Both the position numbers and the translations under genes were made by a program. From the NCBI GenBank assembly GCA_013375475.1, contig JABXKD010000104.1:1-10842 (forward strand): DNA of 10,842 nt, given 5' to 3'. Positions 3,936-10,450 of this stretch are shown piece after piece. This stretch comes from Promethearchaeota archaeon. Its GTDB lineage: Archaea > Asgardarchaeota > Lokiarchaeia > Sigyniarchaeales > SOKP01. Position 1 is the first letter of the stretch, and each line of letters begins with the position of its first letter. The notes under the pieces are model-generated. The model saw only the letters and a program-made list of their open reading frames with translations. It was not told where the DNA came from and ran no database searches.

Positions 3936-6053
3936 ATGCCTAAAACACTAGACGCTTTTACTAAAGAAGGAAAAGGCAGCGTAATTAGGAAGAGGGATCT
4001 AATAAAATCTCCAAATTTAAAAAGAGAATTTCTAGAAATCAATCAACATTTATATGGAAAATTAAAACACACAGAAACCGATACAAGAGCTCGTTCCAAA
4101 GAGATAATAAACTTGATATTGTGTAAATTGGTTGATGAAAAAATAAACTCCTTGCCCGATTCAGTTATGACATTTAGTATTCGAAAAGAGGAAAAAAGTA
4201 ATGAATTACTCGTTCGTCTTAAACAATTCTTTGATGACAATATAAAAGAGAAATATAAATCTATTGTTGATGAAAATGATAACATTAATTTAAACAAAGA
4301 ATTGGTAGTTTTAATTGTTGAGAAATTACAATACATTTCTCTACTGGATTCCTCTAAGGATGTTCTTGCAGATGCTTTTGAGATATTTGTAAGTAGGTTA
4401 TTAAAAGAAGCTGGAGGACAATTTTTCACACCGGCTAGTGTTGTCAAGTTTATGGTAAAATACTTGGATCCTGAGTTAGATACTAAAATTTTAGATCCTG
4501 CTTGTGGACACGGTGGATTTTTATTAGAATGCAAGGACCTTCTGTTATCAAAAATCAAGCAAAAGTACACTAGTCAAAAAAAAATTATTGAAACAAAATA
4601 TGCTAAAACAATCTCTAATCTCTATGGGATTGATAAAGATTCATATTTAGCAAAAATCTGTAAATTATATATTGATATAATAAGCCAAGGTAATTCTAAT
4701 ATTTTTTGCGAGGATTCGTTAGATCCAAATAACTATAGTAATCTAACATTAAATTTTATAAAAAATGACTACTTTGATTATGTGCTTACAAACCCTCCTT
4801 TTGGAGCTAAAATTCCTATTGATAATAAGGAAATTTTAGTAAAATTTGATTTAGCTCATAAATGGGATTACAGAGAAGATAAATGGATTAAGCAAAATAA
4901 ATTAATTAAAAAACAACCGCCACAAATTCTATTCATAGAAAGATGTGTTCAATTACTTAACTATGGCGGGAAATTAGGGATTGTTTTACCAGAAGGTCTT
5001 TTTGGAAATCCTTCAAACAGATATATCTGGGAATATTTACGAAATGTGGGTAAAATTTTAGGGATAATAAGCTTAGATCAGAATGCATTCCAACCTTACA
5101 CATGTAATAAAACTAGCATTCTTTTCTTTCAAAAATTAAAAAATATACCTGATAATTATCAAATCGATTTTGCTATAGTCGAAAATGTAGGTCACGATAA
5201 AGATGGAAAAGTACAGTATAAATTGAATAAAGATGGCACTATAAAATATAACAAACATAATGAACCAATCATAAATAACGACTTAATAAATTTGCATTTA
5301 AAGATTGACGAAAGTACTGAATTTAACTATTTGGAAGAACAAGATGTTTTCAAATTAAACATTAAACAAATTAAAAACAGTATCTTTATACCCTCTTATT
5401 ATACTGGCGTTGAAAAACCTCTCAAATCCTTATTGAAGAACCAGAACTTTATTTTATTATCTATTGCTGATCTAATTGAAAGGGGTATAATTTATACAAA
5501 AAATAAGGAATATCTTCCCAGGGGTGACGAAATTGGTTCTCAAGTTTATGGCTTAGGAGATGTTCCGTTTATACGTACCAGTGAAATTAATAACTGGGAA
5601 ATTAATTTAAATTCACATAAGAAAACATCTGAAGAAATTTATAACCAATTCAAGGAAAAACAAAACTTGGAAGTTGGAGATATTCTTTTGGTTAAAGATG
5701 GTGGTCCAAATTTAATTGGGAAAACTGCGTATATTACTGAATTAGATACACAAATCGTTATTCAGAGTCACATTTATCAGATTAAAACACTCAAAAATAA
5801 AGATTACATTGATCCTTACCTTATACTATACCTACTAAATCTAAAAATTGTTCAAAAACAGATCAGAGCAATAACTTTTGTTCAAGGAACTATTTCTACA
5901 ATTGGAAATAGGATCATGGATGTAAAATTACCTTTTCCCTCTGAATTAGATAAAAGAAAAGAAATTTCAAAACATATTAAAGAAATTATTGATGATAAAA
6001 CAGAGAATAGGAAGAAAATTCTTAACCTCTCTATTAATTCTTTTGATGATTAA
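3936..6053 (+). CDS. N6-adenine DNA methyltransferase (HsdM-like, gamma order) fused to one HsdS-like target recognition domain
   Basis: 705 aa. GQFFTP (motif X), ILDPACGHGGFL (SAM-binding motif I), NPPF (motif IV) and IVLPEG. The C-terminal ~200 aa (VPFIRTSEI, GDILLVKDG..IGKTA, IDPYLILYLLN, KLPFP) resemble a type I S-subunit TRD. Confidence 0.9.
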   Translation: MPKTLDAFTKEGKGSVIRKRDLIKSPNLKREFLEINQHLYGKLKHTETDTRARSKEIINLILCKLVDEKINSLPDSVMTFSIRKEEKSNELLVRLKQFFDDNIKEKYKSIVDENDNINLNKELVVLIVEKLQYISLLDSSKDVLADAFEIFVSRLLKEAGGQFFTPASVVKFMVKYLDPELDTKILDPACGHGGFLLECKDLLLSKIKQKYTSQKKIIETKYAKTISNLYGIDKDSYLAKICKLYIDIISQGNSNIFCEDSLDPNNYSNLTLNFIKNDYFDYVLTNPPFGAKIPIDNKEILVKFDLAHKWDYREDKWIKQNKLIKKQPPQILFIERCVQLLNYGGKLGIVLPEGLFGNPSNRYIWEYLRNVGKILGIISLDQNAFQPYTCNKTSILFFQKLKNIPDNYQIDFAIVENVGHDKDGKVQYKLNKDGTIKYNKHNEPIINNDLINLHLKIDESTEFNYLEEQDVFKLNIKQIKNSIFIPSYYTGVEKPLKSLLKNQNFILLSIADLIERGIIYTKNKEYLPRGDEIGSQVYGLGDVPFIRTSEINNWEINLNSHKKTSEEIYNQFKEKQNLEVGDILLVKDGGPNLIGKTAYITELDTQIVIQSHIYQIKTLKNKDYIDPYLILYLLNLKIVQKQIRAITFVQGTISTIGNRIMDVKLPFPSELDKRKEISKHIKEIIDDKTENRKKILNLSINSFDD

Positions 6054-7825: not shown

Positions 7826-8299
7826 TTAATCGATTTGAGATACAGTGATGTTTGTAACACTTCCATTGGGAGTTAAATTAGAGTATTGCGCCACTGCTTC
7901 CTTCATTGTATATTTTTCAATCATTGCTGTCATAACCATAGCCATTGGACACACCCCTATATTACCTGCAACTGTATGAGCAGATCTCGCCATGAAACAA
8001 TTATTCAAGGAAAAAACGTACGAACCATCAGCTCTCTTCTTAAGAGAAGCGTTTTCAACTAATAAGGAAGTTTTTAATAATTTTATGAACCTTTTACCAA
8101 AATCCTCAATATCTTCTCCTAATATTGGTTCAATACCCAATTTTTCAGTTGTGTCCATAGACTCTTTAATTGCGGGAAATATATAATCAGTATATCCAAT
8201 TTTTCCTAAAGTCTCATCAATACATGATTGAAGAGTAAAAACCCCTACGTGAAATAAACCTGAGATAAATCCAAACTCCTTTGGCATCATTTTATCCAT
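7826..8299 (-). CDS. V4R-like (Bet3/TRAPPC3-related fold) Cys-containing protein
   Basis: 157 aa. Helical N-terminal half followed by YVFSLNNCFMA...H...GVCPMA..AMIE and two terminal strands, the pattern of V4R/MetOD-type domains. Assigned by pattern only. The start may be at 8320. Confidence 0.55.
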   Translation of the reverse strand: MDKMMPKEFGFISGLFHVGVFTLQSCIDETLGKIGYTDYIFPAIKESMDTTEKLGIEPILGEDIEDFGKRFIKLLKTSLLVENASLKKRADGSYVFSLNNCFMARSAHTVAGNIGVCPMAMVMTAMIEKYTMKEAVAQYSNLTPNGSVTNITVSQID

Positions 8300-8348
8300 T
8301 AATTTGCGCTTTAATCCTATTCTTTTTCACCTTATATGAATTTCTTAA

Positions 8349-8666
8349 TTATACATTATTCCAAATACTATTAAAGATTTCTTCAGTTTTTTCTACAATT
8401 AAATTATGTTCTATTACTTTGGTCATAGGAAATAAGATCATTATATACTTGTGTTCCCTTTTTGAGATTGAAATCAATTTATTTTCTGAAGAAATAACAA
8501 TGCTATTTACCTCACCAGCTTCAAATTCATTTGAAAATTTTTTAACTAAATTTATTAACATTCCTCCAATTGAGATCTGACGGGGCGAAGAAAATTTTGG
8601 AGGAACTTCGGAAAAAACAATTTTTCCTATTGTTTCATCAAATACAATAACTCCCTCTGCTTGCAT
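8349..8666 (-). CDS. Stand-alone roadblock/LC7 (MglB/LAMTOR)-like domain protein
   Basis: 105 aa. EGVIVFDE..KIVF, helix, EFEAGEVNSIVISSEN, two strands and a terminal helix fit roadblock topology. It shares 58 of 105 identical residues, ungapped by manual count, with aa 156-260 of the 9362-10162 product. Confidence 0.7.
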   Translation of the reverse strand: MQAEGVIVFDETIGKIVFSEVPPKFSSPRQISIGGMLINLVKKFSNEFEAGEVNSIVISSENKLISISKREHKYIMILFPMTKVIEHNLIVEKTEEIFNSIWNNV

Positions 8667-8778
8667 TGTAGTTTTTAGTTCCTCCAGTTAATTTTAAATT
8701 AATTTAATAATTTTTTATCGAAAAAATACAATTTCCTTTTGTTTTTGTTTGTATATTTTTAATTTTGTTAAAAAAATC

Positions 8779-9336
8779 TTATAAATTACTTTTATATTTT
8801 TCATATAATTCTCTAATTATTTTTTGGAACGCTTCGGTCACCCCTTGATTTGTTTTCGCAGAAGTTCGATAAACTCCAATTATGTTTTTCTCTTTAATGA
8901 AGTTTTGAATAAATTCGTCATCTAATTTATCTTCATTAATTAAATCTACTTTATTTGCAAATATAATGACAGGAATATCACCACAACCCTTTTTAAGGTC
9001 ATTATACCAATATTCAATGTGATTAAGACTTTCTTTACCAAGATCCTTATCTTCGAGGGAATAAACAATAATTGCAGCTTTACTTTCTTCATAAAAATCA
9101 GAACGTAAAAATTCAAACTCCTTTTGACCAGCAATATCCCAAAAATACAATTTACATTCATCTCCATTTACTTTCTCATCATAAAAAGAAAATTGGGCGC
9201 CTATAGTAGATATATAATCTTCCTCAAAAGTGCCTTGAGTATATTTTTTAATTAGAGATGTTTTTCCAACTCCTCCATCTCCAATTACAGTTATTTTAAA
9301 TACAAATTTTAAAGGTCTATCATTCATTAGTTTCAA
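8779..9336 (-). CDS. Rab-like small GTPase (Ras superfamily)
   Basis: G1 GDGGVGKTS, G2 YISTIG, G3 WDIAGQ, G4 NKVD and G5 SAK, plus RabF-like IGAQF and KLYFW. No C-terminal Cys. The start is either TTG at 9336 or ATG at 9327. Confidence 0.96.
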   Translation of the reverse strand: MKLMNDRPLKFVFKITVIGDGGVGKTSLIKKYTQGTFEEDYISTIGAQFSFYDEKVNGDECKLYFWDIAGQKEFEFLRSDFYEESKAAIIVYSLEDKDLGKESLNHIEYWYNDLKKGCGDIPVIIFANKVDLINEDKLDDEFIQNFIKEKNIIGVYRTSAKTNQGVTEAFQKIIRELYEKYKSNL

Positions 9337-9361
9337 TCAAATCCATTCGAATTTATAATTT

Positions 9362-10162
9362 TTATTTTAATATTTCAATCTTTAACATTTTCAAAATGCC
9401 ATCTAAAATTTCTTCTGTTTTTTCCACAATTATATTAAGTTCAATATTTTTTGTTTTGGAAAATAAAACAATTATGTAAATATAATCTCTTTTCGAGACA
9501 CAAATCCACCGATTCTCTGAAGAGATTATTATAGAATTTACATCTCCTCCTTGATATTCAGATGATAATTTTTTAGCAAAATTTATTAACATTCCACTCA
9601 TCGAAATTTGTTTTCTAGATGAATATTCTTCTGGAACTTTAGCAAAAAGAATTTTTTCATCATTTTCATTAAATAGGATTACTCCTTCAGATTGCACTTT
9701 ATAACCAAATTCTTCTAATAAGCCTTCAATAAGCGGTAGTTCCATGAACTGTAACAAATATTTGTTAAAATCTGAGAAAATGGTTATATTTCCATCACGA
9801 ATAGGGAGGTAATCTTGATATCCTTCTAAAAATTTATTTGATATTCTGTTTAGAATGTAATTAATTACTTGGTTTGGTAGATCCTCATAGCATTGTATAC
9901 AAAAAGTAATATTCACGAAGTTATTATAAAATAATTTATGACCACTCATTATTAAGGATTTAACTACCGTGCCTGGAATTAATTTCTCACCAAACTTCTT
10001 AATAGCCGTGAAAAATCCAGACACTATATTTTCATCCAAATCTCCAGTTTTTATACCACAGCTTGTCAAACAGACCCCTGCGTTATCATAAATATAAATT
10101 GATTCAACATAATTTTTTAGTGTTTTTTTTTCCTCTAACAACTCACCCTTATCCGTACTCAT
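9362..10162 (-). CDS. Two-domain protein: N-terminal longin-like domain plus C-terminal roadblock-like domain
   Basis: About aa 17-138 (SIYIYDNAGVCL...DENIVSGFFTAIKKF...VKSL...ILNRISNKFLEGY...DGNITIFSDF) fit the longin pattern seen in Asgard proteins. About aa 145-260 fit roadblock. SD AGGTGA at 10175-10170, 7 nt before the ATG. Confidence 0.75.
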   Translation of the reverse strand: MSTDKGELLEEKKTLKNYVESIYIYDNAGVCLTSCGIKTGDLDENIVSGFFTAIKKFGEKLIPGTVVKSLIMSGHKLFYNNFVNITFCIQCYEDLPNQVINYILNRISNKFLEGYQDYLPIRDGNITIFSDFNKYLLQFMELPLIEGLLEEFGYKVQSEGVILFNENDEKILFAKVPEEYSSRKQISMSGMLINFAKKLSSEYQGGDVNSIIISSENRWICVSKRDYIYIIVLFSKTKNIELNIIVEKTEEILDGILKMLKIEILK

Positions 10163-10231: not shown

Positions 10232-10450
10232 TTATTCTATTTTTTTATTTAAATCATCAATATGAGATTTTAATTTAGAATTTTCAGCTTGGCATTGGTT
10301 TAATTGTTCTTGTAATTTTTGGTTCTGTATAACAGTTTTATTCGCGTTTAGCAAGGTTTGATATAATTGATTCTTAACCTTCTTTAAATCCTTTTCCAAA
10401 GTCTTTACATATTGATCTTTATCAGATACATATGGCCATTCCTCTATCAT
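10232..10450 (-). CDS. Small coiled-coil protein of unknown function
   Basis: 72 aa. After residue ~10 it has no Pro or Gly, is rich in Q/K/N/E/L and shows heptad-spaced hydrophobics (VKTLEKDLKKVKNQL; LQEQLNQCQAENSKLKSHIDDLNKKI). Confidence 0.75.
   Translation of the reverse strand: MIEEWPYVSDKDQYVKTLEKDLKKVKNQLYQTLLNANKTVIQNQKLQEQLNQCQAENSKLKSHIDDLNKKIE

Follow-up and report, generated by a model that had tools for sequence, protein, structure and literature searches.

Asgard archaeal genomes encode small GTPases, roadblock proteins and longin proteins by the dozen. Here we describe a gene cluster on a 10,842-nucleotide (nt) stretch of DNA from a Promethearchaeota archaeon (contig JABXKD010000104.1; hereafter the window), in which a predicted roadblock-like domain occurs twice, once fused to a predicted longin domain and once as a free protein of 105 amino acids (aa), on either side of a gene for a Rab-like GTPase. 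Among the closest described systems, the eukaryotic proteins Mon1 and Ccz1 carry a longin, a roadblock and a lamtor-type domain in this order and are reported to dimerize through continuous LD1–LD1 and LD3–LD3 sheets; Klink et al. termed LD3 of both proteins ‘lamtor-type’, its missing helix being supplied by the LD1–LD2 linker (PMC8833172). Truncated roadblock forms have likewise been described as leaving space that a helix of a different protein may fill (PMC10933270). For the TRAPP octamer, growth through duplications has been proposed (PMC10152722), and bacterial MglB has been reported to work in two roles, GTPase-activating protein (GAP) and guanine-nucleotide exchange factor (GEF), via an asymmetric dimer (PMC11016934). 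For Asgard archaea, Tran et al. (2024) reported that roadblock proteins crystallise as homodimers, that a Heimdall protein fuses longin and TRAPPC3 domains, and that in MK-D1 the genes for GTPases generally do not share operons with those for roadblock, longin or TRAPPC3 proteins, making it hard to match GTPases with their regulators (PMC10933270). Both the fold families and paralogous longin/roadblock GTPase platforms are already known, including from Asgard archaea (PMC10933270). New are a predicted longin-plus-lamtor-type protein, its conserved pairing with a putative TRAPP-fold gene across several Asgard families, and the lineage-specific insertion of a Rab-like GTPase gene together with a fresh paralogue of one of the two domains.

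The window has a G+C content of about 29% and represents contig C5 of a 3.9-Mb assembly, whose nearest public relatives are metagenome-assembled genomes (MAGs) of Promethearchaeota/Lokiarchaeota. On its minus strand lie five consecutive open reading frames (ORFs), encoding the 72-aa protein cc72, the two-domain fusion protein, the GTPase, the free copy and the 157-aa protein p157 in this order, with spacers of 69, 25, 112 and 49 nt. The features of the cluster are the following.

10232–10450, minus strand: cc72, 72-aa predicted coiled-coil protein and first gene of the cluster (ORF; weak coiled-coil Pfam matches)
9362–10162, minus strand: fusion protein, 266 aa, with a predicted longin domain and, C-terminal to it, a lamtor-type roadblock-like domain (ORF; AlphaFold2 model; Foldseek)
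9704–10120, minus strand: N-terminal canonical longin domain of the fusion protein, aa 15–153, predicted as ββ-α-βββ-α plus two more helices (structural alignments)
9368–9700, minus strand: C-terminal roadblock-like domain of the fusion protein, aa 155–265, predicted as ββ-α-βββ-α without helix α1, parent of the free copy (structural alignments)
8779–9336, minus strand: Rab/Ran-like small GTPase, 185 aa (Pfam Ras; G motifs)
8667–8687, minus strand: relic of the duplicated linker, in frame and untranslated, adjoining the start codon of the free copy (reading ‘LEELKTT’)
8349–8666, minus strand: free roadblock-like paralogue, 105 aa, predicted as ββ-α-βββ-α (BLASTP; homologues; tree)
7826–8299, minus strand: p157, putative TRAPPC3/V4R-fold protein, 157 aa (AlphaFold2 model; Foldseek; structural alignments)

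Judged by their sequences, the two roadblock-like copies are a true paralogous pair produced by one duplication. In a BLASTP comparison of the 105-aa with the 266-aa ORF, 58/101 residues are identical (57%; 81% positives, 0 gaps, E 5e-39), residues 1–101 of the free copy being aligned with residues 156–256 of the fusion protein. At the DNA level, 218/315 nt are identical (69%), compared with about 31% expected from composition, and the best local alignment pairs 8665–8353 with 9696–9385. Identity at the three codon positions amounts to 74, 80 and 53%, third positions being the most diverged. The original prediction, made from the sequence alone, had claimed an ungapped match of about 55% to aa 156–260 and a repeat still visible in the DNA at an offset of 1031 nt (9697 − 8666); both claims held up, as did the placement of a GTPase gene between the two copies, all three minus-strand ORFs being intact. 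The window's own genome contains exactly two copies of the duplicated domain. Directly upstream of the free copy's start codon, and preceded by stop codons, the in-frame reading is ‘LEELKTT’, which corresponds to ‘LEEFGYK’ at residues 149–155 of the fusion protein, and in one related locus (L007) the free ORF still starts with MEEFALK. Because of this linker relic and of the start in L007, the breakpoint of the duplication is placed within the inter-domain linker.

The original prediction had also proposed to date the duplication by phylogeny. A maximum-likelihood tree, computed from 110 columns for 59 roadblock-like domains, places the 21 free copies in one clade with support 100/99, in line with a single origin. 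Together with the 22 other fused C-terminal domains of the lineage and P0079, an unplaced long-branch sequence of the free type, they form a clade of 44 (99/90), to which neither the outgroup-like P0078 nor any of the 14 two-domain proteins of the outgroup belong. Branching within this clade is a polytomy, and an approximately unbiased (AU) test does not reject the grouping of all 22 fused C-terminal domains as one clade, with the free clade as their sister (p 0.149). The tree thus indicates that the free copy arose once, from a fused C-terminal domain of this lineage. Database searches recovered 43 homologues of the free copy at 74–94% identity, of which 39 are 99–113 aa long and 36 exactly 105 aa, while the other 7 span 72–126 aa. 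An exhaustive search of 50%-representative sequences with the free copy gave 8 proteins at E<=1e-3, so any more remote homologues would lie beyond the reach of sequence comparison.

The genes of the cluster are intact and, as judged from substitution rates, under purifying selection, the free copy being the least constrained and the fastest of the four compared. With the method of Nei and Gojobori, implemented in our own script, the dN/dS of orthologues (15 pairs) ranges from 0.11 to 0.39 for the free copy, from 0.03 to 0.59 for the fused C-terminal domain and from 0.07 to 0.46 for the GTPase. Between the two paralogues, dN is 0.28–0.37 and dS 0.77–1.4, giving ratios of 0.21–0.38. The original prediction had named a dN/dS near 1 as the mark of a decaying duplicate; neither the paralogue nor the orthologue ratios approach this value, and both copies are under purifying selection. 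In the comparison of the window with locus L006, the free copy and the GTPase share a dN of 0.158, and the values are 0.078 for the fused C-terminal domain and 0.128 for p157. The free copy is strongly accelerated in the lineage of locus L042. There, it (L042:3119-3448, an intact ORF of 109 aa) is 56% identical to that of the window, compared with 75–83% for the fusion protein, the GTPase and p157, and its dN is 0.29, compared with 0.14, 0.17 and 0.115, respectively. The free copy has also lost W219 and C221, which every one of the 19 fusion proteins retains (L64 and S66, respectively, stand in their place); W219 and C221 may be contacts with the N-terminal half of the fusion protein.

The order fused copy, GTPase, free copy and p157 is found in the window, in five MAG loci (L003–L007) and on one metagenome contig (L042). 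In all seven of these independently assembled loci the free ORF is intact and lies 38–112 nt from the GTPase gene, and part of the same order is visible in L009, which is cut by a contig end. Among 17 outgroup loci with a two-domain homologue, 16 have a p157 homologue directly adjacent to it, without a GTPase gene or a free copy, and a contig end truncates the 17th. The p157 homologue lies downstream in six of these loci (L014–L017, L037 and L038; 43–52% identity to the window's p157) and upstream in ten (L018–L020, L022–L027 and L035; 21–28% identity). Because of this adjacency in 16/17 outgroup loci, the two-domain gene and the p157 gene are regarded as the old unit, and the GTPase gene and the free copy were inserted between the old pair in one Lokiarchaeial lineage. 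Left out of these counts are the contigs of the more distant fusion proteins P0023–P0029 and P0075, as well as seven loci (L028–L034) in which weak free-copy matches lie inside unrelated frames of 172–929 aa and homologues of the two-domain protein and of p157 are both absent; L021 is truncated by the end of its contig. When 400 genomes of the phylum were scanned with the free copy, free and fused copies were found together in 6, including that of the window, and a seventh has a free copy on a contig fragment; in the other genomes, the matches lie inside two-domain frames of 245–300 aa or are weak and located elsewhere. A profile of the fusion protein matches 375/400 genomes, mostly via the longin domain alone. 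Full-length fusion orthologues occur in 5/41 other genomes of the window's genus and in 1/54 of a sister genus, and the nearest two-gene versions are found in other families of the phylum. A literature search, which excluded subscription-only papers and supplements, returned no earlier description of the cluster.

The identity of the duplicated domain was taken from predicted structure, because no family library names it. An AlphaFold2 model of the 266-aa protein, built from 19 homologues, has a predicted local distance difference test (pLDDT) score of 69.9 and a predicted template-modelling (pTM) score of 0.50; the homologues of the fusion protein comprise 30 proteins of 251–282 aa and one fragment. 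In this model, residues 19–151 show the element order ββ-α-βββ-α plus two helices and, by VIA, align with the longin domain of VAMP7 (4afi_A; Z 14.7, root-mean-square deviation (rmsd) 2.2 Å over 118 residues), with Sec22b (Z 14.1), with TRAPPC4 (2j3t_D; Z 13.7) and, by Foldseek, with TRAPPC1 (2j3t_C; rmsd 2.1 Å over 107 columns). The N-terminal domain is, on the strength of this model, a well-supported longin with the fold order ββ-α-βββ-α-α; the original prediction had mentioned a longin. The Pfam matches of the fusion protein are all sub-threshold (LAMTOR5, E 0.043; Intu_longin_1, E 0.067; Longin, PF13774, E 0.092 with 13.1 bits against a cut-off of 26.2), and one of its homologues, P0025, has a precomputed PF13774 hit. 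Features of the FLCN/SMCR8/Nprl2-type GAP longins (as given in PMC12290439) are not seen: in an alignment of 19 proteins inspected by eye, the β1-β2 segment is IYIYDNAGVCLTS, and both GP and a conserved Arg are absent from it.

For residues 158–260 of the fusion protein, the model predicts the order ββ-α-βββ-α without helix α1. Residues 155–265 align with residues 16–122 of LAMTOR2/p14 (5y39_G) with Z 11.7 and rmsd 2.8 Å over 103 residues, and with LAMTOR2 in 1veu_B with Z 11.4. The roadblock fold, α-ββ-α-βββ(-α), has a sheet of five strands with α2 on one face and α1/α3 on the other; of this fold, the core is present in the model and one defining helix, α1, is absent. The duplicated domain is, according to these structural alignments, a roadblock-like domain of the ‘lamtor-type’, and the term roadblock is acceptable as a fold class. 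Of the original claim of a roadblock domain a roadblock-like core was thereby retained, while a Pfam call and helix α1 are lacking. Since the free copy starts exactly at β1, it is taken to be a free lamtor-type domain. None of the 18 members of its alignment match Robl_LC7, which places it outside Pfam Roadblock/LC7 membership, and a PDB sequence profile of this alignment gave nothing meaningful. The C-terminal domain has a weak profile match to the MK-D1 Roadblock3 chain 9jue_D (E 0.027), and 2/43 homologues of the free copy carry the label ‘Roadblock/LC7/MglB family’ (JGI). In the ESM Atlas, the nearest clusters to the free copy are unnamed, and at 0.89 there is a cluster in which 38% of the members carry Robl_LC7, which is a lead only. 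When the whole fusion model was searched against the PDB with Foldseek, the best matches were the tri-longin RabGEF subunits Fuzzy/Inturned, Mon1/Ccz1 and BLOC-3 (E 2e-7 to 2e-6; top entries 7q3e_B, E 2.3e-7, and 8c7g_C, E 2.5e-7), followed by TRAPPC1, by Asgard roadblocks (the Thor and MK-D1 structures 7f8m_B, 7yh1_A and 9jue_C) and by LAMTOR roadblocks. This likeness to the tri-longin subunits holds domain by domain, because whole-chain superpositions have an rmsd of 13–15 Å.

The GTPase belongs, by sequence, to the Ras superfamily and is Rab-like. It matches Pfam Ras (E 2e-40, 138.4 bits against a cut-off of 21.6), Roc (6e-30) and NCBIfam small_GTP (1.5e-22), and its best solved relatives are Rab23, which is the top match, Rab35, Rab21 and Ran (E 1e-28 to 1e-24). 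All five G motifs can be read in the translation (G1 GDGGVGKT, the switch-I T, G3 DIAGQ, G4 NKVD and G5 SAK). The protein ends in ...YEKYKSNL, without a C-terminal prenylation cysteine of the kind seen in eukaryotic Rabs. It scores 27.4 bits with Gtr1_RagA, compared with the 138.4 bits for Ras, and the locus differs from the Rag/Gtr architecture in that the GTPase and roadblock-like ORFs are separated by a stop codon and the intergenic spacer.

The second member of the old unit, p157, is moderately well assigned to a TRAPPC3/V4R-like fold. Its AlphaFold2 model (pLDDT 79.8, pTM 0.76) is matched in Foldseek by TRAPPC3/Bet3 chains, Thor-TRAPPC3, the V4R domain of PoxR, BcsD and H-NOX, a list filled by one superfamily (best E 1.8e-3, TM-score about 0.5). 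The same set has been reported as the relatives of Thor-TRAPPC3 (PMC10933270). The model aligns with Z 8.6 to both the yeast TRAPPII chain 7e2c_G and Thor-TRAPPC3 (7yh3_B; rmsd 3.5 Å over 138 residues), and across TRAPP-domain chains and Thor-TRAPPC3 the whole 157 aa superpose with rmsd 3.5–3.7 Å over 138–146 residues and middling Z. None of 15 aligned members matches the Pfam TRAPP or V4R models at E<=1. The residues H17, C101, H108 and C117 are invariant in 15 sequences and could form a metal site of the kind found in V4R and Thor-TRAPPC3, the latter of which binds Zn via 4 Cys (PMC10933270). There is a second type of pair, with the TRAPPC3/V4R-fold gene upstream of its two-domain partner, and in it the p157 homologues listed here have an extra N-terminal stretch.

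L018:2187-2756, L020:423-1001, L022:1027-1671, L024:443-1012, L026:2214-2804, L027:2214-2807 and L035:283-852: extended upstream p157 homologues

This stretch contains a strongly hydrophobic 19-mer with a mean Kyte-Doolittle value of 2.7–3.3 in 7/7 sequences, compared with 0.9–1.6 in 8/8 of the window's type, and the 19-mer looks like a membrane anchor for the pair.

Pairing of the free with the fused copy was examined by complex prediction, using the fusion protein with a 19-row alignment and the free copy with an 18-row alignment. The fused:free pair scored 0.74 (runs 0.76, 0.68 and 0.74), compared with 0.00 for the best of three controls; the score mark is reached by 116/157 solved complexes and 2/215 mismatched pairs, and is a rough guide here since custom alignments were used. 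Between runs, contact agreement is at least 81% and partner pLDDT at least 79. The predicted interface is formed by fusion residues 184–218 and free residues 29–63, α2 and β3 in both cases, with the β3 strands antiparallel (210:59 and 214:55). This predicted edge is that of the classical roadblock dimer, in which contacts are made through α2/β3.

Taken as one package, we slightly favour a reading in which an asymmetric fused:free platform regulates the co-encoded GTPase together with p157. The ancient unit is the two-domain gene beside the gene for p157 with its TRAPPC3/V4R-like fold, and the free copy arose from a single partial duplication, that of the two-domain gene's 3′ half; it now lies, along with the Rab-like GTPase gene, between the old pair. 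The outgroup two-domain proteins probably form a symmetric homodimer via both domains, as Mon1–Ccz1 do via LD1–LD1 and LD3–LD3. In the lineage of the window, the free copy would take the roadblock-like edge (helix α2 and strand β3) of the two-domain protein, which would result in an asymmetric platform with a single longin domain. Platform and p157 would then bind the Rab-like GTPase and act as its GEF or GAP, working like the longin/roadblock dimers of MglB, Ragulator, TRAPP and Mon1–Ccz1. The original prediction had suggested a transition from homodimer to heterodimer; a fused:free dimer is indeed predicted, while divergence of the interface was not found, and the transition is a plausible hypothesis with one supporting prediction.

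Several observations weigh against this reading. The fused:free score cannot rank the heterodimer above free:free or fused:fused homodimers, and its pass may reflect likeness to known dimers, because roadblock dimers have already been solved. The two copies are identical at 23/39 interface and at 35/66 other positions (Fisher p 0.68), and of five paralogue-specific conserved differences 2 fall within the interface; the sequences thus give no hint that a hetero-interface has become specialised, the interface being as conserved between the copies as the rest of the domain. At the level of families, Pfam at E<=1 returned none for the free copy and no Robl_LC7 (PF03259) for the fusion protein, and NCBIfam returned nothing for the free copy, the fusion protein or p157. 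The fold match of p157 is middling at its Z of 8.6, sequence-profile support for it was not obtained from Pfam, NCBIfam or the PDB, and its neighbours in the ESM Atlas are MJ0207, RdxA_C and ATC_hydrolase clusters (0.90–0.93), which serve as leads only. What ties the GTPase to its putative regulators is gene order. Finally, full-length fusion orthologues (E < 1e-140) are confined to the same 6/400 genomes, a patchy distribution of the cluster that could reflect repeated loss or transfer among Asgard lineages.

The same data can be read in other ways. The free copy on its own might form an MglB-like homodimer that serves as GAP or GEF for the GTPase encoded upstream, with the two-domain protein keeping its ancestral homodimer and its partnership with p157. 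This is a credible alternative, albeit one we hold less likely than the asymmetric platform: the free copy directly follows the GTPase gene at the same short spacing in 7 loci, the two genes arrived together, judging by their joint absence from the outgroups, both evolve faster than the older pair (window–L006 dN 0.158, compared with 0.078 and 0.128), and the solved Asgard roadblock proteins are, as far as they are described in PMC10933270, homodimers. Such a homodimer is possible because the dimer edge is nearly unchanged (β3 GEVNSIVISSEN compared with GDVNSIIISSEN); however, an unchanged edge equally permits the heterodimer, which is predicted with high confidence, and the free copy lacks helix α1 of a full roadblock domain while the GTPase is Rab/Ran-like rather than MglA-like by sequence. 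If the free copy does occupy the edge of the two-domain protein, it might do so as a cap or competitor that blocks homodimerisation and tunes an active symmetric complex, for which the predicted interface would be identical to that of the asymmetric platform. We regard this as improbable. The free copy is the fastest-evolving member of the cluster, as seen in L042, and has lost the fusion-invariant W219 and C221; its fixed operon position and clade-wide purifying selection, however, fit a stoichiometric subunit equally well.

It seems highly improbable that the free copy is a duplicate in decay or without function, or that it is an artefact of annotation or assembly. It is faster than the other cluster genes and is recognised by no family model, but its ORF is unbroken both in 7 independently assembled loci and in 43 database homologues, its dN/dS lies between 0.11 and 0.39 in 15/15 orthologue pairs, and third codon positions have diverged most. 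With regard to evolutionary origin, the cluster might represent a minimal, forerunner-like archaeal version of the longin-platform Rab exchange factors of the TRAPP core and Mon1–Ccz1 type, in an operon with its own Rab-like substrate, in which the di-longin and TRAPP-fold proteins would be the old core and half of a symmetric dimer would have been replaced, through a recent partial gene duplication, by a shorter paralogue. This proposal is tentative, and we consider it rather unlikely.

How the locus compares with the described systems depends on the part considered. The fusion protein resembles the tri-longin RabGEF subunits (Mon1, Ccz1, Fuzzy, Inturned, HPS1 and HPS4) in starting with a canonical longin and ending with a ‘lamtor-type’ ββ-α-βββ-α domain, and the Fuzzy–Inturned pair has as its partner Rab23 (entry 9rs9), the best solved sequence relative of the cluster GTPase. 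Unlike these subunits, it has two domains in 266 aa and no middle roadblock-type LD2, and so falls short of the three-domain architecture; it also shows no detectable sequence similarity to them (Intu_longin_1 being sub-threshold), the second lamtor-type domain of the cluster is encoded by a separate gene, and any GEF role is a prediction. With Ragulator (LAMTOR2/3 and LAMTOR4/5) and the Rag C-terminal domains, the cluster shares the fold, as seen in the LAMTOR2 matches (Z 11.4–11.7), and the presence of paralogous roadblock domains, predicted here to pair via α2/β3 into a GTPase platform. However, one of the cluster's partners carries a fused longin, the cluster GTPase is Rab-like and encoded separately instead of being a Rag with its own roadblock, the missing helix is α1 and not the C-terminal helix, and a LAMTOR1-like scaffold was not identified.

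In the TRAPP core, a longin heterodimer of TRAPPC1 and TRAPPC4 is flanked by TRAPPC3, TRAPPC5 and TRAPPC6. All three fold types are, according to the models, encoded side by side with a Rab-like GTPase in the cluster, TRAPPC1 and TRAPPC4 matching the longin of the fusion protein and TRAPPC3-family chains and Thor-TRAPPC3 matching p157. In contrast to TRAPP, the predicted pairing partner is roadblock-like and not a second longin, and p157 matches at a middling level that sequence comparison does not support. In the bacterial MglA–MglB system, too, the gene for a small Ras-like GTPase neighbours one for a roadblock-domain protein, and the MglB dimer acts on the GTPase. Myxococcus additionally possesses a diverged MglB paralogue, MglC. 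The cluster differs from this system in its Rab/Ran-like GTPase with an intact DxxGQ, in a roadblock-like domain without α1 and in the fusion of the second copy to a longin. The Asgard proteins of Tran et al. (2024) come from the same phylum and belong to the same fold families; here, these families are brought together in one cluster, and the available text of that report contains no longin–roadblock-like fusion with a free paralogue (PMC10933270).

The cc72 gene and the remainder of the window provide some further observations. A cc72 homologue lies directly upstream of the fusion gene in L003–L007, L036 and L042 (77–96% identity), and none was found upstream in the outgroup loci L037–L041 when it was looked for there; cc72 is thus conserved just in the lineage with the GTPase and the free copy. 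By analogy with LAMTOR1 or the Mon1/Ccz1 linker helix, cc72 may donate the helix that is absent from the α1-less domains, which is pure speculation. At 285–2720, the window encodes proteins of acetyl-CoA synthase/CO dehydrogenase, namely CdhC, which is the beta subunit (470 aa), an epsilon subunit of 176 aa and a CooT-like accessory protein of 99 aa; they mark the Wood-Ljungdahl pathway and have no relation to the duplication. A 705-aa N6-adenine DNA methylase, Eco57I/type IIG-like (Pfam N6_Mtase 7e-34, Eco57I 7e-9), is encoded on the plus strand at 3936–6053 and is followed by a GNAT acetyltransferase gene, with an overlap of 65 nt at the methylase 3′ end. A run labelled metatranscriptomic and flagged ‘probably DNA’ yielded two contigs of 151 nt, which cover 8157–8432 with 0–3 mismatches and span the junction between the free copy (3′ end) and p157 (5′ end); they are too thin, and of too uncertain a nature, to be used as an indication of expression. 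Two further read runs gave DNA-type contigs of relatives, which were likewise not used as evidence.

As an exception to the published view that Asgard GTPase genes generally do not lie in operons with such partners, the cluster offers a rare and testable match of an archaeal GTPase with its likely regulators, and the relatives that carry the old pair alone provide natural controls. Its few soluble proteins can serve to ask whether longin/roadblock platforms already acted on Rab-like GTPases in archaea, whether a TRAPP-fold protein participates, and how duplication makes an asymmetric dimer out of a symmetric one. If the forerunner-like reading were true, the cluster would be a living example of the step from homodimer to heterodimer that is thought to have made Ragulator, TRAPP and the tri-longin GEFs asymmetric.

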